From positions 128 to 64,127 of the forward strand of contig SVGX01000003.1 in NCBI GenBank assembly GCA_015056105.1: a DNA stretch of 64,000 nt, given 5' to 3'. The first letter of the stretch is position 1, and the number at the start of each line of letters is the position of its first letter. Below the pieces are notes generated by a model. The model searched no databases, was not told the origin of the DNA, and saw only the letters and a list, made by a program, of their open reading frames with translations. Origin of the DNA: Clostridiales bacterium (GTDB lineage: Bacteria; Bacillota; Clostridia; Christensenellales; CAG-138). A program made the translations under genes and the position numbers. Below, piece after piece: positions 36,507-54,632 of the stretch.

Positions 36507-36921
36507 ATACGGTGGGATGGCAGGATACGGCTTCTGCGCCTGCAAAAGCCGTTCGCCGGTCATGCTGCGCCCGCGGTCGGTTCTCTGATCGTCCCCGCGG
36601 CACCTGAGAATGCACGCTGCACACGCGGTGATGCGGCGATCTTCGCTCTGCTTTTCTCCGTTTTGTGTGTGAAGAGCTGAATAAAAAATGAATAACAAAA
36701 TGAAACGATATTGCCCGCAGCAAAACGCTGCGGGCATATTGTCGTAAAAACGGGACTCTTTTGCACGTTTTGTCCCGCGGTACTTGCTTTCGGCACGAGC
36801 GCTGTAGTATGATGCAAAAGGGGATTTCTGCCGAAAATATGCTGCCCTTGGCGGCTTTTGCCCGGGGAACATCCTCTTGTATTTCGGAATATCATCATCT
36901 TTTTTTAAGGAACAGATCTCT

Positions 36922-38532
36922 ATGAAAAAAATCGTTGCCGCAAGTATCGTCCTCTGCCTTCTTCTTTGCCCGTTAACCGCTCTTGCCGCCGCCCTTACCG
37001 GCGTGAACATCAGCCAGACGGCACAGGCGGAGGATGCGCTTTATGTGTTCTTCGATGTGACCGATGAAACCGGCGCGCCCATTGCGGGCATCGGCGCGGA
37101 GGATGTGAGCATCTCCCTCGGCGGCCGGGATTTCGCGTCCAAAGTCGGCACGGTGGGCGGCAGCGGCCTTGGCGTGGGCTATGTGTTCGCGGTGGATATC
37201 TCCCGCTCGCTGAATGAAAAGCAGTTTGCCTATGTGCGCGAAGCCATCGGTGCGTGGATCGGCGCCATGGGCGAAAAGGATATGGCATCCATCCTCACCT
37301 TCGGGGATGAGATCACCATGCTCACCGATTTTACCGCCGATACCGATGCGCTTCTTTCCACCGTGGAGGGGATCTCCCCCACCGACGGCACAACGCAGCT
37401 GTATAACGGCATCATCCGCGCGCTGGATGTGGCAAAGCGCCAGAGTGCGGAGCTGCCTCTTCGCCGGGTGCTCGTCATCCTTTCCGACGGTATGGATGAC
37501 TATCCCGCCGGTGCCACCATGGCGGAGGTGACCGCCAAAGCGGAAGATGCGGGTGTTCCCATCTATGCGGTGGGCGTAAAGGGAAAAAACAACCAGAGCG
37601 AGCTCAACGAGCTTGGCAGCGTGGCAAGGCTTTCCGGCGGCGAGCTGTACCTGACGGAGCAGGACCAGCTGCGGGGTGGTTATGAGACCGTGTTTGACCG
37701 CATCCTGAACGGCTATGTGGCGGCTGTCGCCCTTGATGGCGCCGCAGCCGACGGCAGCGAGCAGGGGCTCATCCTTTCCGTGAAGCAGGGCAGCGTGTTT
37801 GTGGAGGATGGCGTGGATGTGCGTCTGAAGGCAGTGGCGGCAGCCACCGCAGCGCCGACGGAAGCGCCGGCAAATACTCCCGCGCCCACAAAGACGCCTG
37901 CGGCGATACCCACGACCGCGCCTTCGGCCCAAACGCCCAAGGCAAAGGGCGGCATGGCGCTGCCTGTTATTATTGCCGTTGCTGCGGCAGCGGCGGCAGG
38001 CATCGTGGTGCTCATCCTTTCCGCCAAAAAGCGCGGGGCGAAAAAGGCGGAGCAGGAGAAGCTGGAGGAGATCCGCCGCCGGCAGAAGCTGGATGAGCTG
38101 ATCGATGTGAAGGCGCCAAGGTCCGGCGGCAGCGCAACGGGTGTCCTTACGGACCGCACCGTGGCCCTTGATGATGAAAAGACCGTATCGCTGGGCGGCC
38201 CGCGGCAGCGGCGGCTCATGCTTTCCCTGGAGGATACGCGCAGCGGCGGCGAGCGCCGCTACACAGCGCCCATCGGCCGGGAACTGACGGTGGGCAGAAA
38301 GGCCGGCGAGGTGGATATCGAGATCCGTGACCGCTCCGTCAGCGGGCGGCACTGCGCCTTTGCGCTCAGAAATGAGCGGCTCTTCCTTTGGGATCTTAAT
38401 TCCACCAACGGCACTTATCTGATGACGCCGAAAGGAAAACAGCGCATCGGCGGCGAGGGCGCCCCGGTGAAAAACGGCGATGTGATCCTGCTTGGCGAAA
38501 CGGAGCTGGCGATTATCGTTTACGAGGATTGA
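36922..38532 (+). CDS. bitopic membrane protein: extracellular vWA domain (intact MIDAS), TM helix, cytoplasmic FHA domain
   Basis: Signal peptide; VFAVDISRS (DxSxS), GTTQLY and LSDGMDD for vWA; a P/T/A-rich linker; TM ALPVIIAVAAAAAAGIVVLIL. The FHA reads LTVGRKAGEVDIEIRDRSVSGRHCAF...DLNSTNGTYL, with the canonical GR, SxxH and NG residues. Confidence 0.8.
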   Translation: MKKIVAASIVLCLLLCPLTALAAALTGVNISQTAQAEDALYVFFDVTDETGAPIAGIGAEDVSISLGGRDFASKVGTVGGSGLGVGYVFAVDISRSLNEKQFAYVREAIGAWIGAMGEKDMASILTFGDEITMLTDFTADTDALLSTVEGISPTDGTTQLYNGIIRALDVAKRQSAELPLRRVLVILSDGMDDYPAGATMAEVTAKAEDAGVPIYAVGVKGKNNQSELNELGSVARLSGGELYLTEQDQLRGGYETVFDRILNGYVAAVALDGAAADGSEQGLILSVKQGSVFVEDGVDVRLKAVAAATAAPTEAPANTPAPTKTPAAIPTTAPSAQTPKAKGGMALPVIIAVAAAAAAGIVVLILSAKKRGAKKAEQEKLEEIRRRQKLDELIDVKAPRSGGSATGVLTDRTVALDDEKTVSLGGPRQRRLMLSLEDTRSGGERRYTAPIGRELTVGRKAGEVDIEIRDRSVSGRHCAFALRNERLFLWDLNSTNGTYLMTPKGKQRIGGEGAPVKNGDVILLGETELAIIVYED

Positions 38533-38601: not shown

Positions 38602-41600
38602 ATGCGGTTTGTGATCATGGCCTATGCAAACGGCGCGTATGAGGAGTTTCGTTTGCCCGCGCTGAACGATGCGGATCATGAAATCCTGCTTTCTGCGGTG
38701 CGCTTTGGTTTGAAAAAAGACATTGCCCTGCGCTTTGAGGTGCTTTCCGGGGAGTGGAAAGTGCTTGGCGGCAAGGGCTATGCCCTGTTTGACCGGCAGG
38801 AGCAAAAGGAACAGCTGCCCCTTGCGGACGAGCTGACCTTCGGCGTCATCAGCGGTGCGGATCATGTGACGCTGATCGTGACCGGCGAGGCGGAAAGTCT
38901 GCCCTGCTTCCAGAAAATCGATATCTCCCGCCTGCGGGAGCTCACGGTGGGAAAACAGGAGGGCTGCCATATCCGCTATGATTTCCGTGGCCTTGTGAGC
39001 AAGCGCCATGCGGTGCTGGCAAGGGAGGCGGATGGTTCCATGCGCCTTACGGACCAAAGCACCAACGGCGTGTATGTGAACGGACAGCGGATACAGGGGG
39101 CAAGGCGCCTTGCTTTTGGCGATGTGATCAACATCCTCGGCCTGAAGCTCGTCTTCCTTGGCGATGCCCTCGGCGTGTATGCCCTTGGCAGGCAAGTGGA
39201 GATCGATCCGCGCATCCATATGCCCTATGTGCTGCCCCAAAGCGGCGAAAAGCAGCCCCCGGCGGAGGAGAGCCGCTTCAAGCGCGCCCCCCGCGCGGTG
39301 GAGGAGCTGCACCGGGAGCCGGTGGAGATCGAAGCGCCGCCGCCGCCCAACAAGCCGAAAAAGCAGCCGCTGCTGCTGACCATCGGCCCTGCCTTTACTA
39401 TGATGATCCCCATGCTGCTCGGTTCCGGCATGGCGATCTTCAGCGCCGGTGCCACCGGTATGGGAAGAAGTCCCTTCATGTTCACCGGCATTATCACGGC
39501 GGTATCCTCCGCTGCCATCGGCGTGATGTGGGCGCTCATCAACATGCGCCATGCGAAAAAGCAGCTTCGGGAGGATGAACTGCACCGCTTCAATGCTTAC
39601 CGGGATTATCTTGTCAGGATCGCGGATGAACTTAACGAGCAGTATCGGGATAACGCAAAGACCCTTAATGACCGCTATCCCTCCGCGGAGGCCTGTCTTC
39701 GTTACGGGGCGGATCCCACAAGGCTCTGGAACCGTAACTTTACCCATGATGACCTTCTTTTTGTGCGCCTTGGCATGGGCAGCATGCCCTTCCAGGTTCC
39801 CATCGGCATCCCTAAGGAGCGCTTTACGCTGGTGGATGATTCCCTTTCCGAAAAACCGAAGCAGATCTTTGATAGTTTCAGCACCCTGAGGGATGTGCCC
39901 GTGGGGGTGGACCTTGGGGCCGATCCCCTCTGGGGCATTTACGGCGGCGGCAGCATGGCGGAGGGCATCTCCGTGGCCCGCAGCATGGCTGTGCAGCTTG
40001 CGGCCAATACCTGCTATACGGATGTGAAGCTCGTCTTCCTTTACGAGAAGCAGTATGAGCGGGAATTTGCATTTGCAAAGTGGCTTCCCCATGTCTGGTC
40101 GGAGGATAAGAAGGTCAGGTATGTGGCTTCCGATAAAAACGAAGTCAGCGATGTGCTCTATGCCCTCGGCAGCACCCTCCGCATCCGTGCAGAGCAGGAA
40201 AACAGGCGCGGCGCCGCCCGCCCGCACTATGTGGTCTTTGTGTGCGACCCCGATCTTCTTGAAGGGGAACCGGCGGCAAAATATCTTCTTGAACCTGTGG
40301 AGGGGCTGGGCGTATCCACGGTGCTCATCGCGCCGGGCTATGAAGCGCTGCCCAACAGCTGCACCAACCTCATCGAACGGGATAAGCATTTTTGCGGTTT
40401 CTACGATGTGAGCACCGTGGAATCGAAAAAACGCGCCGTTGCCTTTGATGATGTAAGCGCCTTTGAGGCGGAGCGCTTTGCCCGCTGGCTTTCCGGCATT
40501 CGGGTAAAGGAGCTTGAGAGCGGCGGCGAGCTGGCGGATGCCGTTACCTTCTTCGATCTGTACGGCGTGCAGTCGTTGGCGGAGTTTGGCGTCATCGACC
40601 GTTGGCGCAAAAACAGAACTTATGAAAACATGCGCGCGCTGGTGGGCCAAAAGGCCGGCGGTGCCGATCTGTACCTTGATATCCACGAAAAATACCACGG
40701 ACCCCACGGCCTTGTGGCGGGCACCACGGGCAGCGGCAAAAGCGAAACGCTGCAGACCTATATGCTCTCCCTTGCCCTCAATTTCAGTCCGCTGGATGTG
40801 GGCTTCTTCGTCATCGACTACAAGGGCGGCGGCATGGCCAACCTGTTTTCCGACCTGCCTCACATGCTCGGGCAGATCTCCAACCTTTCCGGTAACCAGG
40901 TGCGCCGCGCCATGGTCAGCATCAAGAGCGAGATCAAGCGCCGCCAGCGCATTTTCGGCGAGTATGATGTGAACCATCTCGATCAGTATACGCGGCTGCT
41001 CAAAAACGGCGAAGCCGCCGTGCCGATCCCGCACATGGTCATTGTGATCGATGAGTTTGCGGAGCTCAAACGGGAAGAACCCGACTTTATGCGGGAACTG
41101 ATCAGCGTGGCGCAGGTGGGCCGAAGCCTGGGCATCCACCTGATCCTTGCCACCCAGAAGCCTGCCGGCACCGTGGATGACAACATCTGGAGCAACTCAA
41201 AATTCAAGCTCTGCCTCCGGGTACAGGATAAGCAGGACAGCATGGATATGCTCAAAAAGCCGGACGCTGCCTATATCACCCGGGCGGGCCGCTGCTACCT
41301 GCAGGTGGGCAACGATGAGATTTTCGAGCTTTTCCAGTCCGGCTGGAGCGGCGCGGCCTATGATGAGGATATGGCTGCCGCCAAGGCGGAAGTTGCCACC
41401 ATGCTTTCCAAAACGGGCCAGCCCAGCCTTGTAGGCAACCGCAGCAAGCTAAAATGGAAGGAGCAGAAGCGCCTCGGTTGGTTCAGCGAGATCTACGATT
41501 GCATCCTTGCCGCCGCCAAAGCGGAGAATAAGTCCCTTGATGCCATCCTTAAGGATGCACACGATAAGGATGCGGCGGTGGAAGCGGTGTTTGCCATGCT

Positions 41601-43566
41601 GGCCAATAAGGGGTATGAATACCCCGTCAGCCGGTATAACGCCAAGCGGCTGGAGGATTTCATGCTGCTGGCCGCCAAGGCGCAGGGCGTTGGTGATAAG
41701 GCAAAAACCCTTGATATCATCCGCAAAACCGCAGCCCTTGGCGGAATCAAACTGCCGGAGCTGAAGGAAAAGACCCAGCTTGCGGCGGTGGTGGAATACC
41801 TGAAGGAGCAGGCGGAAAAAAGCGGCATGAAGGCGGATCTGACGCTGTGGTTGCCGGTGCTGCCGGCGCGGCTGCACCTTGCGGAGCTTCAGGGCTTTGC
41901 GGGCGGTGCCTTCCGCAATGGCTGGCAGCCTGTTCTGCCCGGCCGCGAGTGGGAGCTGCGAGCCCCCGTGGGCCTTTGTGATGACCCGGTGAACCAGGCG
42001 CAGACGCCGGTGGAGGTGAACTTTGCGACCGATGGCCACATCGCCGTGTGCGGCATGGTGGTGAGCGGCAAAAGCACCTTCCTGCAGACGCTGCTCTACT
42101 CGCTGGCAAACCGCTATTCGCCGGAATATGTCAACTTCTATATCCTTGATTACAGCAGCAGGATGCTCGGCTGCTTCAAGGATCTCAAGCATTGCGGCGG
42201 CGTGGTCTTTGAAGACCGGAGCGACCGTACCGGCAAGCTCTTCGCCATGCTCAAAAAGGAGCTGGAACGCCGCAAAAAGCGCTTTGAGGGCGGCAACTAC
42301 GCCCAGTATGTGCGTGCCAACGGCCCCGTGGAGCCGGCGCTGCTGCTTGTGATCGACGGCTTTGCCAACTTTAAGGAAAAAACCGATAACCGCTATGAAG
42401 ATATGCTCATCGAGCTTTCCCGCGAGGGTGCCAATTACGGCATCTTCCTCGTGCTGTCGGCGGGCGGCTTTGGCGCGGCGGAGATCCAGAACCGCATCGG
42501 CGAAAACATCAAGACCGTGTTTGCGCTGCAGCTTGGCGACAGGCTCAAATACAGCGATACGCTGCGCCAGCGGGTGGATGTGATGCCGGAGGCGGATACC
42601 CTTGGCCGCGGCCTTGCGCTGGTGCAGGGAACGCCCCTTGAATTCCAGACCGCCCTTGCCCTTCCCGCAGAGGATGATTACGAACGGGCGGAGAAGATGG
42701 CGGCGGTGTTCGCGCGGATGAACGAAGCGTATCCGGGCAGGGGCGCAAAGCCCATCCCGGAGATCCCGGAAAAGCCCACTTTTGCTCTCCTGCGGGAAAA
42801 TGAGGGCTACAAAGTGCTGCTTGAAACGCCGGACCGCCTGCCCCTCGGCTACGTGGCGGCGGATGCGGATATTGCCGGCATCGATCTCAAACAATGCTTT
42901 ACGTACCTTGTGGCGGGGCAGGGCCGCACCGGCAAGAGCAATGCCCTTGCCTGCCTGATGCAGGCCGCCCATGACCGGGGCGGCAGCATCGCCGTGATCG
43001 ACAGCCGCAAAGGCGAGCTTGCCGCCATGGCGAAGGAGCTTGGCGCGCGCTATGTTTCCACCGAGGAAGAGCTTGCCGCCTTTGCGGGCGAGCTGTTTGA
43101 GCAGATGCGCGAGCGCAACAGCCTGAAGCGGGCGCTGCGGGCAAAGGGCGCGTCGGATGAGGAGATCTATGCGGCGATGCTCCAGTATCCCGCCTGCTAT
43201 CTCTTCATCGATGACATGGCGGAGCTGACGGAAACGCTGTATTCCGGCTCTGCGCAGATGCAGAACATCATCGGCTTTATGGAGAATTTCTTCGATAAGG
43301 GCGCGCTGCATAACATGTATGTGTTCGGCGCCGTGCCGCTTTCCGGCTACAGCATGGCCCTTGGCTACCGGGCTTTCCGCCTTGCGGCGGAACGGAAGAC
43401 CGGCCTGCTGCTTGGCGGCGATGCGGCGCGCCAGCAGCTGTTCGATCTTTCCGCGCTGCCCTATTCCGAGCAGACGAAGAAGTTCAGGCCGGGCATCGCG
43501 CTGCTGCCGCAGGACCATGAGCGGGAGCGGCCCGAAAAGATCGTGCTGCCCATTGCAAGAGGATGA
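38602..43566 (+). CDS. essC: type VII secretion FtsK/SpoIIIE-family ATPase EssC (YukB-like)
   Basis: 1654 aa. N-terminal FHA-like modules (LTVGKQEGCHIRYDFRGLVSKRHAVL...STNGVYVNG), 2 TM helices and three P-loop domains: GTTGSGKSE with VIVIDEFAEL, GMVVSGKST, and GQGRTGKSN with LFIDDMAEL. Confidence 0.9.
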   Translation: MRFVIMAYANGAYEEFRLPALNDADHEILLSAVRFGLKKDIALRFEVLSGEWKVLGGKGYALFDRQEQKEQLPLADELTFGVISGADHVTLIVTGEAESLPCFQKIDISRLRELTVGKQEGCHIRYDFRGLVSKRHAVLAREADGSMRLTDQSTNGVYVNGQRIQGARRLAFGDVINILGLKLVFLGDALGVYALGRQVEIDPRIHMPYVLPQSGEKQPPAEESRFKRAPRAVEELHREPVEIEAPPPPNKPKKQPLLLTIGPAFTMMIPMLLGSGMAIFSAGATGMGRSPFMFTGIITAVSSAAIGVMWALINMRHAKKQLREDELHRFNAYRDYLVRIADELNEQYRDNAKTLNDRYPSAEACLRYGADPTRLWNRNFTHDDLLFVRLGMGSMPFQVPIGIPKERFTLVDDSLSEKPKQIFDSFSTLRDVPVGVDLGADPLWGIYGGGSMAEGISVARSMAVQLAANTCYTDVKLVFLYEKQYEREFAFAKWLPHVWSEDKKVRYVASDKNEVSDVLYALGSTLRIRAEQENRRGAARPHYVVFVCDPDLLEGEPAAKYLLEPVEGLGVSTVLIAPGYEALPNSCTNLIERDKHFCGFYDVSTVESKKRAVAFDDVSAFEAERFARWLSGIRVKELESGGELADAVTFFDLYGVQSLAEFGVIDRWRKNRTYENMRALVGQKAGGADLYLDIHEKYHGPHGLVAGTTGSGKSETLQTYMLSLALNFSPLDVGFFVIDYKGGGMANLFSDLPHMLGQISNLSGNQVRRAMVSIKSEIKRRQRIFGEYDVNHLDQYTRLLKNGEAAVPIPHMVIVIDEFAELKREEPDFMRELISVAQVGRSLGIHLILATQKPAGTVDDNIWSNSKFKLCLRVQDKQDSMDMLKKPDAAYITRAGRCYLQVGNDEIFELFQSGWSGAAYDEDMAAAKAEVATMLSKTGQPSLVGNRSKLKWKEQKRLGWFSEIYDCILAAAKAENKSLDAILKDAHDKDAAVEAVFAMLANKGYEYPVSRYNAKRLEDFMLLAAKAQGVGDKAKTLDIIRKTAALGGIKLPELKEKTQLAAVVEYLKEQAEKSGMKADLTLWLPVLPARLHLAELQGFAGGAFRNGWQPVLPGREWELRAPVGLCDDPVNQAQTPVEVNFATDGHIAVCGMVVSGKSTFLQTLLYSLANRYSPEYVNFYILDYSSRMLGCFKDLKHCGGVVFEDRSDRTGKLFAMLKKELERRKKRFEGGNYAQYVRANGPVEPALLLVIDGFANFKEKTDNRYEDMLIELSREGANYGIFLVLSAGGFGAAEIQNRIGENIKTVFALQLGDRLKYSDTLRQRVDVMPEADTLGRGLALVQGTPLEFQTALALPAEDDYERAEKMAAVFARMNEAYPGRGAKPIPEIPEKPTFALLRENEGYKVLLETPDRLPLGYVAADADIAGIDLKQCFTYLVAGQGRTGKSNALACLMQAAHDRGGSIAVIDSRKGELAAMAKELGARYVSTEEELAAFAGELFEQMRERNSLKRALRAKGASDEEIYAAMLQYPACYLFIDDMAELTETLYSGSAQMQNIIGFMENFFDKGALHNMYVFGAVPLSGYSMALGYRAFRLAAERKTGLLLGGDAARQQLFDLSALPYSEQTKKFRPGIALLPQDHERERPEKIVLPIARG

Positions 43567-46217: not shown

Positions 46218-46466
46218 ATGATCATGGTGGATGTGCAGGTGCCGGCGCTGGATGCGTCCTATGATTTTTCCCTTTCGGAGCATGTGCGGGTCAGCGAGCT
46301 CATTGAGGAGATCGCCGAGATGATCTGCCAGCGGGAGAGGCTTCTTGCCCCGCGGGATATGGAAGGCTTCGCCCTTTGCGCCCCCGGCACGGGAGCTGTT
46401 CTGCCCAAGGGGCTCACCCTTTCCGAGTGCGGCGTGACAACGGGCAGCAAGCTGATGCTGCTTTAA
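46218..46466 (+). CDS. esaB: YukD/EsaB-like ubiquitin-fold T7SS protein
   Basis: 82 aa. VDVQVPALDASYDFSLSEHVRVSELIEEI...LSECGVTTGSKLMLL fits the EsaB/YukD pattern in size, beta-grasp periodicity and context. Confidence 0.7.
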   Translation: MIMVDVQVPALDASYDFSLSEHVRVSELIEEIAEMICQRERLLAPRDMEGFALCAPGTGAVLPKGLTLSECGVTTGSKLMLL

Positions 46467-46569
46467 TCCACTGCCGGCGAAAAAAGTTTATTCGTTTTAT
46501 TCGAATGATACCGACAAAATATATACATTTTAACGGAAGCAGGATATAATTTCCTTATGAGGTGCATCA

Positions 46570-46863
46570 ATGGATGTTTTTTTCTCGGCACATACCGGCG
46601 GTTTGCTGCAGGCGCAGGCGGAGTATGCCCGCTGCAGCGGCGTGCTGAGCGAAAAACTGCAGGAAGTTGAGCTTCTGAGCCGTCGCCTTGTCCCGATGAG
46701 GGGGCTGGAGGACTGCGCTGCGCAGCTGATCAAAAGCAAGGCGCAGCTGGAGGAAGCGCTTTTTACCCTTGGGCGGCTGCATGCCGTGCTGGAGGATGCG
46801 CTTACATCCTACCACGCCGCGGAGCGCAGCATCCAAGCGCGTTGCACCGATGGGGAAAGATGA
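46570..46863 (+). CDS. small helical-hairpin protein without WxG (T7SS-associated candidate)
   Basis: 97 aa with GAGGTG RBS, predicted all-helical with heptad-like pattern, and a C-proximal SYHAAE motif shared with neighbours. Confidence 0.55.
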   Translation: MDVFFSAHTGGLLQAQAEYARCSGVLSEKLQEVELLSRRLVPMRGLEDCAAQLIKSKAQLEEALFTLGRLHAVLEDALTSYHAAERSIQARCTDGER

Positions 46864-46923
46864 ACCGGTGGCGCAGCAAATGCGGCAGACACACAGGGAA
46901 CCAAGCAAAAAAGGAGAGAATCG

Positions 46924-47229
46924 ATGGCAGGAGTCTTTGTTGAAGTCGATACAGCGCAGATGGAGCGGGATATTGAATCCGTAAAAGAGCGGCTTCAAGC
47001 GGTGCGCAGTGCGCTTGAAGCGGTATATGCGCAGATAGAAGAGCTGGACGCCATGTGGGATGGCCCCGCAAACGATGCATTCCGCAAACAGTTTGCGTCC
47101 GACCGGGAGGAGTTTGCTGCCATGTGCAAGGAGATGGACAGCCTCGTGGAAAGCCTGACTTACGCCAAGTGGGAATACGAAAAGTGCGAAAGCCGGGTGA
47201 ATGCAGCGGTGGCTGCTATTCGGGTCTAA
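46924..47229 (+). CDS. WXG100 family protein
   Basis: 101 aa with central MWDGPANDAF and C-proximal EYEKCE. Strong RBS. Confidence 0.75.
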   Translation: MAGVFVEVDTAQMERDIESVKERLQAVRSALEAVYAQIEELDAMWDGPANDAFRKQFASDREEFAAMCKEMDSLVESLTYAKWEYEKCESRVNAAVAAIRV

Positions 47230-47239
47230 GGAGGAAAGC

Positions 47240-47671
47240 ATGGAACACAAAGAGATCAACATCCCCTTTACCAACCCCGATTCCGGCAAGAGCCTGCTGT
47301 GGTTCCCGGAAAACCTGCTGGAGCAGATCGGCTCTGCCCTTACACACCTGAAAACAGCCACGATGACCATCCGTACCTCTCCTGAGGTAATGCAGGCAAA
47401 GGCTGCCGAGGTGCATACCGCTGCGGCGGAGATCCGCCGGGAGTTTGAAGATCTGATCCGCGCTGTGGAAAGAACATCCGCCTATTGGAACGGCAACGCG
47501 GCAGAGCAGCACCGCCGGCGCGCCGCTGCCATGAAACCCAAAGCGGAGGATATGATCGCCTGCCTTGAGCAGCATGCGGCAAACCTGCAGCAAATCGCAG
47601 GCCTTTATACGGCGGCGGAAACAAAGGCGAAAAGCACGAGCGCTGCACTGCCCACGGATGCCATCGAGTAG
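47240..47671 (+). CDS. WXG100-like protein with about 40-aa N-terminal extension
   Basis: Start after AAGGAGGAAAGC. YWNGNAAEQH motif, LYTAAE, and C-terminal tail ALPTDAIE. Confidence 0.7.
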   Translation: MEHKEINIPFTNPDSGKSLLWFPENLLEQIGSALTHLKTATMTIRTSPEVMQAKAAEVHTAAAEIRREFEDLIRAVERTSAYWNGNAAEQHRRRAAAMKPKAEDMIACLEQHAANLQQIAGLYTAAETKAKSTSAALPTDAIE

Positions 47672-47682
47672 GAGGAAAGCGG

Positions 47683-47997
47683 ATGAAAACGAAAGCCGAG
47701 ATCGAGTTCAATTTTGAACAGGCGCGCCGCAGGGCTGCAGAGCTGGAGGAGATCGCACAGGATCTTGAAAGCCTTGCCAAAAGGGATATGGAGAACACCA
47801 GGGCGGAGCTTGCCGCCGCCTGGAAGGGGGAGAGCGCACAGCTTTTCTGCGGCAAAAGCGATAAGCTGCAGCAGGATATCGCTTCAACGGCAAAGGAGCT
47901 TGCGGCCGTAGCCGGCTCCATCCGTGAGATCGCCCGCCTTGTTTATGAGGCGGAGATGCAGGCGCTTCAGATCGCCGCACAGCGGGACTATGTATAA
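47683..47997 (+). CDS. WXG100 family protein
   Basis: 104 aa with AWKGESAQLF motif. AGGAGGAAAGCGG RBS. Confidence 0.7.
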   Translation: MKTKAEIEFNFEQARRRAAELEEIAQDLESLAKRDMENTRAELAAAWKGESAQLFCGKSDKLQQDIASTAKELAAVAGSIREIARLVYEAEMQALQIAAQRDYV

Positions 47998-48094
47998 CGA
48001 TCGCTTCGGCGCGAAGCGATGAAGAGGAAACCGGCGCTCCTTTTAGGGGGCGTAACAATACAGAGACCATCAATCCAACAGGAGGAAGAGAACC

Positions 48095-48400
48095 ATGGCA
48101 AACGGATATGTTGTTACCACTGCAGCCCTTCGCCGCACGGCACAGGAGCTCAGGGATCTGAACAGCCAGTACAGGACCCGTGTGGAATCCCTTGCGGGCC
48201 TTGAGCAGGAGCTGCGCAGCATGTGGGAGGGCGAGGCAAACATCGCGTTTCAGCATGCATTTGCCAGCGATAAGGTAAACCTTGACAATTTCTATTCCGT
48301 CATTGAGCGGTATGTGCAGGCGCTTGAGACTGCTGCTGCGGAATATGAAAAGGCAGAAGCGCAGGCCACCCAGACCGCAACCACCCGCACCTATCGCTGA
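48095..48400 (+). CDS. WXG100 family protein
   Basis: 101 aa with MWEGEANIAF motif and EYEKAE. CAGGAGGAAG RBS. Confidence 0.75.
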   Translation: MANGYVVTTAALRRTAQELRDLNSQYRTRVESLAGLEQELRSMWEGEANIAFQHAFASDKVNLDNFYSVIERYVQALETAAAEYEKAEAQATQTATTRTYR

Positions 48401-48439
48401 TAGGGTGCAGCCGGAGCAACGAGCGAAAGGAGACAAATC

Positions 48440-48754
48440 ATGGATGGTATTTTGAAAGTAACGCCTGCTGCACTGCGGGCAAAATCCGGTGAATTCGATC
48501 AGAACAGGGCTGCTGTGCGCGGTCTCATCGAGCAGATGAATGCCAAGGTCAGCGGTATGAACTCCGTTTGGCAGGGCGATGCGGCCACGGCCTATCAGAC
48601 TTCCTATAACGGCCTTCGCGATGACATTGAGCGAATGGACCGCATGATCGCCGAGCATGTGCGCGATCTCAACGAGCTGGCGGATGTTTATGCCAGGGCG
48701 GAGAGCGCAGTGGAAGCTGCCGCGCAGGCGCTTCCCAAGGATGCGATCCAGTAA
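48440..48754 (+). CDS. WXG100 family protein (most EsxA-like member)
   Basis: 104 aa. ILKVTPAALRAKSGEF..., VWQGDAATAY with W at residue 44, VYARAE, and C-terminal tail ALPKDAIQ. Confidence 0.8.
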   Translation: MDGILKVTPAALRAKSGEFDQNRAAVRGLIEQMNAKVSGMNSVWQGDAATAYQTSYNGLRDDIERMDRMIAEHVRDLNELADVYARAESAVEAAAQALPKDAIQ

Positions 48755-50775: not shown

Positions 50776-52119
50776 ATGGCTGAGTTTTATGTCAAATCGG
50801 AAGGCCTTGACGCCTGTGCTGTGCGGTATGGGAAGCATACCGTGCAGCTTATGCATGCGCAGGATCGGATCCGCACCGTCAGAAATAAGCTGAGCGGCGC
50901 CTTGTGGGAAAAGTCCGGCCTGCGGGACAGCCTGAAAAAAACCGCTTCCGCCTGCGGTGACGGCGCTGCGGCCGCAGGCAAAATGGGGGTGGCGCTTTCC
51001 AAAGCCGCTAATTTATACAGCAAATGCGAGCGCGGCATCATCGCCTATGAAAAGGTGCAAAGGGAGCAGGAAGCGCTGAACGGGAAACATGAGGAGCTGC
51101 TTGCCTTTGTCAACGATCCCTACAGCAGTATCCTTTTTATCGATTTTAACCGCTACAGCGAGGAGATCAGCAATCTTGGCTTTAGTGATGCGTTGCTGCT
51201 GGCCGTCAATAACGGCTTTGGCCTGGATATCCTCATCGGAAATCTGCAGGGCAAGGATTACGAGACGGAGGTCATCAAAAGTCAGCTGGCGCAGATCCTC
51301 TGCAATATGGAGGGGCGAAGCGGCACCCTTGAAGTGCCAGATGAGGTCAAACTCCTTGTGGAGGGGCTGCAGGCGGGCGCCGAAAAGGGCCTTGAAAACG
51401 CGGATGACATCGCGGCGTTCCTTGCGGAAGCGGGCTTGAAGGATATCGATCCGAAGATACTCAAACAATACGCGGATATCCTCGACAAAGTGGATATCGG
51501 CCTCATTCTCGAATCCGGCGAAAAAGGCGTGCAGCTTCTCCAGTATGCCTTGACCGATTACCGGGAAAGCATCAAGACCCTTGAAGCTTTCCGCCAATTC
51601 GGCGGGGAAGGAAGCGTCAACGCGGCGGTGGATGATATGATCGCCCTGTATCAGAACAAGTTTATCGGCAGCCTGCAGCAAACGGCGGAGTTCGTGCATG
51701 AAAAAGTGGTGGAAAAGGGCGCGGAACTGGCCTTTGACGCGATGACGGGCGGCCTTTACAGCGCGGTGGATTTCGGCACGGAGCTTTTGATGGAGTTTTC
51801 CGGCCTGAGCGACACTGCGGATGCGAAGGAGTCGCTTATGGGCAACGCGATCCTTGAATACGATGTTTCTTCGGCCTATTCCGAGGCGCTCGAAGCCCTG
51901 CGGGACGGCAGCTTTACCGAGGCGGATGTGGATACCGCAAAGCGCATGTTCGAAATGCAGAAATCCATCAAGATCGCACAGTATGAAAACCTGCTGACGA
52001 TTTGTGATGATGCGCCCAGGGAAACAAAAAATGCCATCAAAAGCGAACTGGAGTTTATCAAATCGCTGCAAATGGATGTGGAGAGCATCGGGGCGGTGAA
52101 GCAAAGAAGAAATCAATAA
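50776..52119 (+). CDS. 447-aa all-helical protein with WXG100/LXG-like N-terminal hairpin (candidate T7SS substrate or adaptor)
   Basis: No signal peptide. The N-terminal 100 aa are helical, with LYSKCE at the end of the hairpin. The rest has no motif I recognise. Confidence 0.5.
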   Translation: MAEFYVKSEGLDACAVRYGKHTVQLMHAQDRIRTVRNKLSGALWEKSGLRDSLKKTASACGDGAAAAGKMGVALSKAANLYSKCERGIIAYEKVQREQEALNGKHEELLAFVNDPYSSILFIDFNRYSEEISNLGFSDALLLAVNNGFGLDILIGNLQGKDYETEVIKSQLAQILCNMEGRSGTLEVPDEVKLLVEGLQAGAEKGLENADDIAAFLAEAGLKDIDPKILKQYADILDKVDIGLILESGEKGVQLLQYALTDYRESIKTLEAFRQFGGEGSVNAAVDDMIALYQNKFIGSLQQTAEFVHEKVVEKGAELAFDAMTGGLYSAVDFGTELLMEFSGLSDTADAKESLMGNAILEYDVSSAYSEALEALRDGSFTEADVDTAKRMFEMQKSIKIAQYENLLTICDDAPRETKNAIKSELEFIKSLQMDVESIGAVKQRRNQ

Positions 52120-52982: not shown

Positions 52983-54632
52983 ATGGCACTGAGCAAAGAA
53001 CAGCTGCTGCTGCTTAACAACCTTATGTATCTTCCGGATATAAAAGCGGAGGATGGGCACCCCGTCAGCTATCCGATCCATAAGCTGCCCGATGATTATC
53101 AGACCGTGGGGGATATCGTCAACAACCTGCAGGCGAATTATGCCCATGTCGACAACAAAGGGGAATACGGCTCCTATACCTCCGGAACGGACTGGAAAAA
53201 CCTCATCAATGCCATCTCGCAGGATGAAACGCTGATGAACATGCAGATCGTTGCCACCCATGTGGATAATGGCCCCACCGGAGGCGGCGGTAAAAGCGCC
53301 CTGTTTGTGGACCCTGCAAACGGCGAAGCGGTAGTCACCTTCCGTGGCACAGCCAGCGGCGAGTGGAAGGATAACTTCGTGGGCGGCACCGCCACCAACG
53401 CGGCGGATGGTGTATCCACCCCCCACCAGCAGAACGCCCTTGATTGGTATGAGAGCCTCGATCTGTCCGGCTATGAGACCGTTACCGTCACCGGCCATTC
53501 CAAGGGCGGCAACAAGGCGAAGTATATCACCCTGATGGATGATTCGGTGGACCGCTGCGTTTCCTTTGACGGGCAGGGCTTTTCCGATGAATTTATCGAG
53601 AAATACGGCGATGCCATCACCATGCGCCAGCATAAGATCGAAAACCACAACGTGGATGGCGACTATGTCAACATGCTCCTCAACGATGTGGGCGAGACCT
53701 ATTATTACGATGCCTTCCGCGGCACGGACAGCTTCCTTGAAAACCACTGCCCCAATACGTTTTTCAAGTTTGACGCAAACGGCAACCCCGTCATGGTGCC
53801 GGGTGAGCGCTCGCCGGTGATCGCGGCGGTGGATGAGTTCCTCAACAGCCTGCTGCGCTCCGCTTCCCCTGCTCTCAAGAAACAGCTTCTTACCTTTGCG
53901 GGCGAGCTTGCGGACTGCGCCCTTGCGGGTGATTTTTCCGTTGATGACCTGATGGTCATCCTGCGGGATGAGGATTCCGTGGAAGCTGCCGGTTATCTTA
54001 TTGCCTATTTGCTGGAATACCCCACGGCCAATGCGGCCCATGACATCAAACAGTTCCTTTCCGATGTGGGGCTTGGCGATCTCAACTGGATCATCAGCGG
54101 CGTGGAGAAGCTGCTTGATTCGGATATTGCCGCCTGGATCGTGGAGCAGATCGCCGATGGCGGGGCCTGGGCGGTGGATGCCATTCCCGACTGGCTGTAT
54201 AAAAAGATAACGGGCTTTTTCGGCATCGATCTCAAAAAAGAGGATATCGTGTTCGTGCTGCAGCTGGTGGGTGCCACCTTTGATGCCAAGCAGCAGATCG
54301 AAGTGGTACCGGATTCCGGCAAGGATATCAGCCTGCCTTCCCTCGGGGGCACGCCTGCCTGCTTCAGCGTATATGCGGATACTCTGCGTGCGGCGGCGGA
54401 AAAGCTGGGGGAGGCCTCCTTTGACCTTGCCCGCAGTGCGGATGCCGTAACGGTGCAGCGGAAAAAGACGAGCCTTTTCCTCGGCGTGATCCGCATCCGC
54501 CTCGGCAGCATTGCAAGAAAGCTCGACAAGCAGAGCACCAAAGCCCGCAAAATGCAGAATACCCTCGCAAGCGTGGCAGAGCTGTATGAGAAGGCGGAAA
54601 AAGCCGCCGCAGCCCACGCAAACACAAAATAA
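52983..54632 (+). CDS. DUF2974/Mbeg1-like alpha/beta hydrolase (lipase/esterase fold) with C-terminal WXG/LXG-like helical domain
   Basis: VVTFRGTASGEWKDNF...TVTGHSKGGNKAKY (GxSxG). No signal peptide. The C-terminal 110 aa are helical and end ...ASVAELYEKAEKAAAAHANTK. Confidence 0.7.
   Translation: MALSKEQLLLLNNLMYLPDIKAEDGHPVSYPIHKLPDDYQTVGDIVNNLQANYAHVDNKGEYGSYTSGTDWKNLINAISQDETLMNMQIVATHVDNGPTGGGGKSALFVDPANGEAVVTFRGTASGEWKDNFVGGTATNAADGVSTPHQQNALDWYESLDLSGYETVTVTGHSKGGNKAKYITLMDDSVDRCVSFDGQGFSDEFIEKYGDAITMRQHKIENHNVDGDYVNMLLNDVGETYYYDAFRGTDSFLENHCPNTFFKFDANGNPVMVPGERSPVIAAVDEFLNSLLRSASPALKKQLLTFAGELADCALAGDFSVDDLMVILRDEDSVEAAGYLIAYLLEYPTANAAHDIKQFLSDVGLGDLNWIISGVEKLLDSDIAAWIVEQIADGGAWAVDAIPDWLYKKITGFFGIDLKKEDIVFVLQLVGATFDAKQQIEVVPDSGKDISLPSLGGTPACFSVYADTLRAAAEKLGEASFDLARSADAVTVQRKKTSLFLGVIRIRLGSIARKLDKQSTKARKMQNTLASVAELYEKAEKAAAAHANTK

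Follow-up and report, generated by a model that had tools for sequence, protein, structure and literature searches.

An ordered, conserved array of WXG100 genes with a shared helix-2 motif in a type VII secretion locus of a Clostridiales bacterium

Why should six consecutive small genes of one type VII secretion system (T7SS) locus encode helical proteins that nearly all carry the same five-residue pattern close to the C-terminus? The genes, referred to here as p1 to p6, lie on the + strand of a 64,000-nucleotide (nt) stretch of a Clostridiales bacterium (contig SVGX01000003.1, assembly GCA_015056105.1; "the window", whose numbering is used throughout), directly 3′ of the gene for the T7SS component YukD. 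An earlier inspection without database searches (the sequence-only reading) had noticed Y-x-x-[A/C]-E in five of the six proteins and in two larger proteins of the locus, and had proposed a locus-wide shared targeting signal. Our comparisons identify the motif as the WXG100 superfamily's own helix-2 half of the bipartite T7SS export signal. What is new is, as judged from related loci, the ordered multi-WXG100 array, which occurs mostly in Lachnospiraceae and is a fixed gene set rather than a local curiosity.

The motif strings quoted in the sequence-only reading were all recovered from the translations. The first gene, p1 (46570–46863), encodes a protein of 97 amino acids (aa), a predicted helical hairpin without WxG, in which SYHAAE supplies Y81-x-x-x-E85. 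The five following genes encode WXG100 proteins: p2 (46924–47229, 101 aa) with W45 and EYEKCE (Y85-E-K-C-E89), p3 (47240–47671, 143 aa) with W83 and LYTAAE (Y123-T-A-A-E127), p4 (47683–47997, 104 aa) with W47 and VYEAEM (V87-Y88-E-A-E91), p5 (48095–48400, 101 aa) with W44 and EYEKAE (Y84-E-K-A-E88), and p6 (48440–48754, 104 aa) with W44 and VYARAE (Y84-A-R-A-E88). In the Pfam family WXG100 (PF06013, gathering cut-off 27.3 bits), p2 to p6 scored 44.5, 51.3, 27.9, 42.4 and 58.4 bits, respectively, p4 being barely over the cut-off; p1 had no Pfam match and was therefore not counted as a member. All five members have the helix-turn-helix of about 100 residues with WxG at the turn, at residues 44–47 in the proteins of 101–104 aa and at residue 83 in p3, which has an N-terminal extension of about 40 aa. 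The EssC/EccC-type ATPase gene expected beside WXG100 genes is present as well (EssC, 38602–43566; YukD, 46218–46466).

Counted from the tryptophan of WxG, tyrosine is found at W+40 in p2, p3, p5 and p6 and at W+41 in p4, and glutamate at W+44 in all five WXG100 proteins. In p4, the acid of VYEAEM is in register, valine holds the hydrophobic W+40 position and the tyrosine comes one residue late. All five proteins show the spacing of the T7SS export motif, a hydrophobic or aromatic residue at about W+40 and an acid at about W+44 on the C-terminal helix. HxxxD/ExxhxxxH, which contains the mycobacterial YxxxD/E, was shown to be common to all WXG100 proteins on this helix (Poulsen 2014, PMC3935865). 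In Streptococcus intermedius EsxA, the structure of which was solved, WxG (W43, G45) and VxxxD (D87) form a bipartite export motif; with a D87A exchange neither EsxA nor any of the LXG toxins was exported, and LXG-Lap complexes build the same composite signal (Shah 2026, PMC13355648). FxxxD of Lap1 is needed for export too, as far as PMC10801868 quotes it (Klein 2022/2024). The view that the role of the motif in T7SSb is less clear, taken in the sequence-only reading, is outdated, since both the ΦxxxD of EsxA and, according to that quotation, the FxxxD of Lap1 are required. As a family export signal the motif is thus already known and is not new here.

Alignments with solved structures gave a similar picture. 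Residues 6–87 of p6 matched residues 5–86 of S. intermedius EsxA (12fa_A) with an offset of one residue, and if this match is ungapped and extended by one residue, W44 falls on W43 and E88 on D87. The p5 protein aligned without gaps with Thermomonospora curvata 4lws_A, placing YEKAE on YEARE, and Y...E of p6 fell on YEARE likewise. On S. aureus EsxA, V-Y-A-R of p6 was aligned with A-V-Q-E.

When each protein was shuffled, Y-x-x-[A/C]-E appeared anywhere in 3–10% of the shuffles and within the last 25 residues in 0.6–2.3%, and the probability of at least five of six proteins carrying it by chance was about 2 × 10−6 (anywhere) or 1 × 10−9 (last 25 residues); the genome-wide frequency of the pattern is 0.21 per 1000 residues. 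As the array proteins are paralogues, these statistics speak for conservation by common descent and not for independent recurrence: five of the six proteins carry the motif because they are homologous and share the helix-2 pattern of the superfamily.

Forty genomes from the bacterium's own genus, family and order contained no p6 match at E ≤ 0.001, and context was therefore drawn from metagenome contigs and from a pattern scan of GTDB genomes. Metagenome assemblies yielded p6 homologues with 68–84% identity, and on seven close contigs YukD is followed by all six genes in unchanged order. Across these seven loci the tyrosine is invariant at all six motif positions, and so is the glutamate, except in p3, where Gln is found in four of the seven. 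Mean identities were 81% for p5, 77% for p6, 60% for p2, 58% for p4, 48% for p3 and 33% for p1. The gene 3′ of p6 differs between the close loci (a PdaC-domain protein, a 348-aa protein, a 454-aa protein or a hydrolase), with the array unchanged. Non-equivalent positions or loss from orthologues had been named in advance as findings that would speak against a shared signal; the motif was found at equivalent positions and is kept in orthologues of the six small proteins, of a 447-aa protein and of a hydrolase encoded 3′ of p6.

The same arrangement extends to distant genomes. A p6 profile matched 1945 representative proteins at E ≤ 0.001, and 110 of the 139 best homologues of about 104 aa have Y...E at W+40, most of them ending in a variant L-x-x-[DN]-[VI]-[IV]-x. 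From a scan of species-representative genomes, 80 distant loci were collected, mostly from Lachnospiraceae metagenome-assembled genomes and isolates, and their small open reading frames (ORFs) were assigned to the six orthogroups with hidden Markov models (HMMs) derived from the close loci. The order p1-p2-p3-p4-p5-p6 was found in 17 loci, p2-p3-p4-p5-p6 in 8 and p2-p4-p5-p6 in 19; an ordered p2-p6 array is therefore present in 25 of the 80, 17 of them with p1. In almost all 80 loci p5 and p6 are adjacent, in some of them without p1-p4, and a few loci permute the blocks [p5 p6] and [p2 p3 p4] as units. Where the flanks were complete, a YukD homologue preceded the array in 52 of 61 loci and an EssC homologue in 58 of 61. 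Carriers of the array include Anaeromicropila herbilytica TB5 (L069), Clostridium sp. chh4-2 (L045), Suilimivivens aceti (L061) and Parablautia muri (L070).

Within the orthogroups the register is close to invariant. Tyrosine occupies W+40 in 39 of 48 p2, 28 of 32 p3, 82 of 82 p5 and 77 of 78 p6 proteins, and W+41 in 45 of 52 p4 proteins, which have I, M, V or T at W+40. Glutamate is present at W+44 in 47/48 (p2), 30/32 (p3), 48/52 (p4), 82/82 (p5) and 77/78 (p6). The residue at W+43 is usually small: Cys in 31 of 48 p2 and Ala in 42 of 52 p4, 75 of 82 p5 and 75 of 78 p6 proteins; no residue dominates in p3 (Ala 12, Thr 12 of 32).

Some members of this collection stood out. Locus L028 (CAYUKT010000034.1) is labelled "uncultured Bacteroides sp.", and its array is nearly identical to those of L025, L026 and L058, all from Lachnospiraceae; this contig was more probably misbinned than derived from a Bacteroides with a T7SS. 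Homologues of p6 also occur in fusions, namely tandem double WXG100 proteins with two matched stretches (P0047 and P0144, about 231–236 aa), WXG100 N-termini on longer proteins (P0026, 375 aa) and a protein of 2378 aa (P0121) with ten WXG-like stretches matched by the p6 profile. Glycine-rich runs (GGGGGG...) are attached, varying by genome, to the p4 C-terminus, the p3 N-terminal extension or the C-terminus of the 447-aa family (L005:9250-9615, L007:8826-9308, L018, L035, L043, L052; L006:15905-17272, L007:10413-11777).

The extreme C-termini form a second conserved element. The sequence-only reading had pointed to one shared tail, AALPTDAIE in p3 and QALPKDAIQ in p6; both are present, and both are kept as ALP[KTI][DN]AI[EQK] in all seven close loci. 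Among all orthogroup members, the L-x-x-[DNE]-[VIA]-[IVL]-x tail (L-tail; ALPTDAIE in p3 of the window) terminates 27 of 43 p3 and 64 of 81 p6 proteins and none of the p2, p4 and p5 proteins, with Leu at position −7 in 76 of 81 p6 members. An R-x-Y tail, represented in the window by QRDYV (p4) and TTRTYR (p5), is found in 76 of 83 p5 and 36 of 75 p4 proteins, in none of p2 and p3 and in 1 of 81 p6; p2 as a rule ends in a hydrophobic I-x-I (AAIRV in the window). The array has two mutually exclusive tail classes, the L-tail of p3/p6 and the R-x-Y tail of p4/p5, a new finding that goes beyond the single tail seen before.

The five WXG100 paralogues fall into two modules. In a quick maximum-likelihood tree (160 sequences), the five labels require no more than the minimum of 4 changes, with support values of 96 for the p2 clade, 99 for the p4 clade and 82 for a p3+p6 grouping. 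Profile comparison (hhalign) linked p3 with p6 (E 3e-27), the closest paralogue of p3, and p2 with p5 (E 1e-19). Tree and profile comparison show that the paralogues are older than the spread of these loci. Distance-matrix correlations over 32 loci, which are exploratory as the loci are related and p2-p4 distances near saturation, were r 0.85–0.89 (partial 0.35–0.71) within {p2, p3, p4}, r 0.79 (partial 0.74) for p5-p6 and r 0.36–0.55 (partial ≤ 0.23) across the modules, in agreement with the block permutations of [p5 p6] and [p2 p3 p4]. The genes p5 and p6 evolve at about half the rate of the other array genes. By these measures p5-p6 are the slowest-evolving, near-universal pair and p2-p4 a second co-varying module. 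For p1 and the cargo N-domain, distances to be correlated with those of the paralogues were saturated at about 2.4, and the 6-kilobase (kb) flank limit and relatedness confound the co-occurrence of individual paralogues with the hydrolase.

The first gene behaves differently. In the p1 family (20 members), E85 is the sole invariant column, and at least 90% of the members have Y81. An AlphaFold2 (AF2) model of the p1 orthologue of L006 is a hairpin (H10-41 and H47-106; mean predicted local distance difference test (pLDDT) 82.6). Comparison by hhalign gave remote homology of the p1 family to p2 (E 4e-7) and p3 (E 8e-7); a 7-sequence p1 alignment was not significant against p2 and p6 (E 0.05–0.065), the signal appearing only with deeper alignments. 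None of the 20 members matched a Pfam family. The p1-family profile matched the TelA LXG chain 8gmh_B weakly (E 0.027, amid coiled-coil noise). Its best match among PDB sequences was IncA, which was rejected as coiled-coil noise.

Two larger proteins downstream carry a domain of the p1 type. In the 447-aa helical protein it forms an N-terminal hairpin (50776–51060, + strand) with L39-S-G41 at the turn and Y81-S-K-C-E85; in the 549-aa hydrolase (52983–54632), whose Mbeg1-like domain (PF11187) spans residues 112–214, it is C-terminal (54345–54632, + strand) with F499-L-G501 at the turn and Y535-E-K-A-E539. The corresponding strings of the sequence-only reading, LYSKCE at residue 81 and LYEKAE 15 residues before the hydrolase end, are both in place. 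By hhalign, residues 1–105 of the 447-aa family matched the p1 family with probability 96.3 and E 1.6e-9 over 86 columns, with Y81/E85 superposed on Y81/E85 of p1, and the C-terminal 95 residues of the hydrolase family with probability 95.3 and E 2.3e-8 over 89 columns, again with Y...E superposed. The scores, 54.2 for the 447-aa N-domain and 46.5 for the hydrolase C-domain, compare with at most 17.2 and 16.8 for controls (reversed, column-shuffled and other helical segments). In the whole 1.8-megabase assembly the p1-family HMM found exactly three places, p1, the N-terminus of the 447-aa protein (E 8.9e-7) and the C-terminus of the hydrolase (E 4.1e-4); in related loci it found 20 N-termini of 294–454-aa proteins, often directly 3′ of p6, as well as 19 C-termini, the majority in hydrolase homologues. 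Three orthologues of the 447-aa protein retain the motif (LYSKCE, EYKKCE and LYRSAE in the family), as do hydrolase orthologues (LYEKAE, QYRDAE). LXG (PF04740) was not found in either protein at E ≤ 0.1; the shared domain comprises about 90 aa, not about 190–200. By these profile comparisons the p1 family is an uncatalogued WxG-less hairpin of about 90 aa, used at either end of larger proteins. Of the proposed locus-wide targeting signal, the T7SS element in register held; the feature common to p1, the 447-aa protein and the hydrolase proved to be the whole hairpin of about 90 residues, and not just five of them.

Hydrolase homologues were found downstream of the array in 51 of the 80 distant loci, 43 of the 51 with [YF]xxx[DE] among their 30 C-terminal residues. 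The Mbeg1-like hydrolase with its C-terminal hairpin accompanies the array repeatedly, often as the next gene after p6, and is not an isolated cargo. Where all six array genes are present, it usually lies at a distance of more than 6 kb or is missing. The 549-aa protein has the architecture of a reverse lipase, with a predicted N-terminal hydrolase and C-terminal targeting hairpin. It resembles the S. aureus proteins TslA (TlaA1/TlaA2) and TslM (WXG100 partner TlaM) in its N-terminal catalysis, its C-terminal hairpin and the WXG100-type genes nearby, and the Φ-x-G turn is FLG here and LFG in TslM. Unlike these, its catalytic domain is Mbeg1-like (PF11187), its C-terminal Y-x-x-A-E is missing from TlaA1/A2, and its targeting domain is also found N-terminally on other cargo and free as p1.

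Taken together, these data are, in our judgement, likely to reflect a conserved WXG100 array with a core p5:p6, an accessory p2-p4, the helix-2 export signal and docking tails. All paralogues would have inherited Y-x-x-[A/C]-E, with its hydrophobic W+40, small W+43 and acidic W+44, from a common ancestor. Their hairpins would pack head-to-tail as dimers, with the WxG turn of one chain beside Y...E of the other, and the EssC ATPase would read this composite WxG + Y...E signal. We infer the secretion of the array proteins, their dimer pairing and the function of the tails from sequence. The slowly evolving p5 and p6 would be the core pair, equivalent to EsxA or TsxA1/A2, with p6 the probable EsxA/TsxA-type core protein, and p2-p4 a faster, co-varying accessory module. 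The p1 protein would be a free copy of the hairpin domain that the 447-aa protein carries at its N-terminus and the hydrolase at its C-terminus; to complete the signal, these domains probably depend on a paralogue with WxG from among p2-p4, by analogy with PE-PPE, LXG-Lap and TslM-TlaM. The two tail classes are probably second docking elements for EssC, as they recall the CFP-10/EsxB signal that docks on EccC.

For the core, the comparison with EsxA/TsxA (PDB 12FA, S. aureus 2VRZ, M. tuberculosis EsxA-EsxB 3FAV) is close: the Pfam family, the hairpin of about 100 aa and the EssC/YukD neighbours are alike, and so is the register (W43/D87 in S. intermedius EsxA, W44/E88 in p6). The array differs in comprising five WXG100 proteins and one WxG-less relative in fixed order, where T7SSb has one and T7SSa, e and g have two, in having Tyr at W+40, as in mycobacterial substrates, instead of the Val of streptococcal and staphylococcal EsxA, and in its conserved, class-specific tails. 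In the T7SSa pairs PE-PPE and CFP-10/ESAT-6, YxxxD/E and WxG are on separate chains encoded by adjacent genes; phylum and machinery are other than those of the array, and only sub-threshold PPE matches were obtained here.

Several observations weigh against this explanation. The orthogroup labels derive from the HMMs of the close loci and all 80 distant loci were found via p6, so that the counts are not independent and the presence of p6 is by design. In the close loci L006, L008, L009 and L012, p3 has Gln at W+44, which contrasts with Glu in 30 of the 32 distant p3 proteins; the signal of this paralogue may have been relaxed in that lineage. The p1 of the window lacks about 25 C-terminal residues that are kept in all six orthologues (119–122 aa): at 46840–46923, a deletion of about 45 nt, diverged sequence and a premature stop remove the conserved tail W-G-x-x-D-L...G-F-x-L-F, and the short p1 may be a decaying copy or a lineage-specific short form. 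A Foldseek search of the PDB with the p1 model returned nothing below E 0.25 and ranked EsxA and PE25 among generic hairpins; fold alone therefore has no discriminating power. The AF2 model of the 447-aa protein, built from three sequences, has a mean pLDDT of 45, with residues 1–187 below 50, and is unreliable beyond secondary structure. Finally, S. intermedius EsxA does not bind LXG complexes; the core pair therefore need not touch cargo.

The suggestion that the paralogues act as heterodimer partners or adaptors, also made in the sequence-only reading, is plausible for p2-p4, as these genes co-vary and move as a block, and less likely for p5-p6, which look like a core EsxA-type pair. More tentatively, alongside a core p5:p6, the p2-p3-p4 trio might clamp a minimal, orientation-independent domain of about 90 aa, with the tails docking at different EssC sites and imposing a hierarchy or order on export.

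A rival explanation, in which all six proteins are cargo-specific adaptors of the Lap/Tla type that escort only the 447-aa protein and the hydrolase and none is core, appears unlikely. It has precedents in T7SSb: LXG toxins need two or three Laps, TslA needs TlaA1/A2 and TslM one WXG100 partner (PMC10730906, PMC13560087), and cargo with a p1-type domain is encoded directly 3′ of the array in many loci. Lap1-4, and EsxB/EsxC/EsxD of EsaD, resemble the array as small helical proteins encoded upstream of cargo, p2-p4 forming a comparable co-varying trio; in Lap systems, one partner gives F/YxxxD/E and two or three stack on a helical targeting domain. However, p2-p6 are all true WXG100 proteins, the targeting domain has about 90 aa as compared to about 190–200 for LXG, and the array is kept whatever the toxin part of the cargo, staying constant while the gene after p6 varies. 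Identities of 77–81% for p5 and p6 as opposed to 33–60% for p1-p4, loci with p5-p6 and without p1-p4, and the occurrence of p6-type proteins in thousands fit poorly with cargo-specific adaptors, and the Lap families (DUF3130, DUF3958, DUF5344, DUF5082) were found neither in p1-p6 at E ≤ 0.1 nor among the Pfam matches listed for the 20 p1-family members.

It is less probable still that the paralogues are secreted effectors, each acting on its own as a homodimer, for example on membranes or on the host in the manner of ESAT-6, with nothing in common but the export signal and no role as adaptor or in the machine. The fixed gene order, the co-variation in blocks and the complementary tails in adjacent genes point to hetero-complexes, and p1, lacking WxG, has no complete signal alone, even though EsxA proteins of Bacillota are homodimers holding both signal halves (PMC13355648, PMC3935865) and p2-p6 each possess WxG as well as Y...E. 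A chance pattern without function in Ala/Glu-rich helices was rejected, for although the looser Y...[DE] occurs 3.0 times per 1000 residues genome-wide and in 24–59% of the shuffles of each protein, chance does not account for the exact W+40/W+44 register, five carriers among six proteins, near-invariance in 32–82 orthologues per group and in the 110 of 139 representatives, or E85 as the sole invariant p1 column.

The array is embedded in a type VII secretion locus. It begins with a gene for a vWA+FHA protein (36877–38532), followed by that for the 1654-aa EssC/TsxC-type FtsK/SpoIIIE ATPase (38602–43566, + strand), an ORF whose orthologues in the related loci have precomputed Pfam FHA and FtsK_SpoIIIE matches and the presumed receptor and motor of the system. 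A TPR/RCC1 protein gene and the gene for the YukD/EsaB-type ubiquitin-like component (46218–46466, + strand; PF08817, 48.8 bits) come next. A promoter-like site (46522–46550, + strand; TATACA-17-TATAAT, 10 of 12 consensus positions, from a consensus scan only) lies between yukD and p1. Shine-Dalgarno-like sequences precede all six array genes, the gaps from p1 to p6 measure 60, 10, 11, 97 and 39 nt, and a consensus scan of the + strand saw no terminator-like sites between the six genes, which form one operon-like array. Downstream of p6 are genes for a TPR protein, the 447-aa protein, a 271-aa protein, the hydrolase and a membrane Ser/Thr kinase. In the close loci L005-L012, a LytTR-domain gene and a gene for a protein of about 225 aa follow EssC (e.g., L006:1738-3125); neither was seen 3′ of the window EssC (43563), where the TPR/RCC1 gene comes directly next.

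In the catalogue of Garrett, Higginson and Palmer (2024, PMC11217815), T7SSc-T7SSj share with this locus an FHA-bearing EssC, YukD, a membrane Ser/Thr kinase and a separate FHA protein, and reverse lipases occur at some of these loci, as here. The combination of a vWA-FHA protein with an FHA-bearing EssC fits no catalogued subtype exactly, T7SSc having a vWA protein and an EssC without FHA; a LytR-like regulator is listed for T7SSi only. At most two core WXG100 genes are given per subtype, Lachnospiraceae are not mentioned, and our full-text literature search on WXG100 proteins and type VII secretion in Lachnospiraceae returned no paper. The best reading of the gene content is that the array would belong to a T7SS subtype associated with a kinase and FHA, which occurs in Clostridia of gut and rumen and is missing from the published catalogue.

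The array extends that catalogue. If the tentative scheme of a core pair, an adaptor trio and two docking tails holds true, many gut Lachnospiraceae would possess a new T7SS subtype, characterised by a WXG100 "code" of five parts. T7SS substrate recognition is poorly understood beyond mycobacteria, staphylococci and streptococci, and the array offers a natural experiment, with five WXG100 paralogues, one helix-2 signal, two tail classes and a compact hairpin at either end of the cargo. As Lachnospiraceae are prominent in the human and animal gut, the module may bear on interbacterial competition there.

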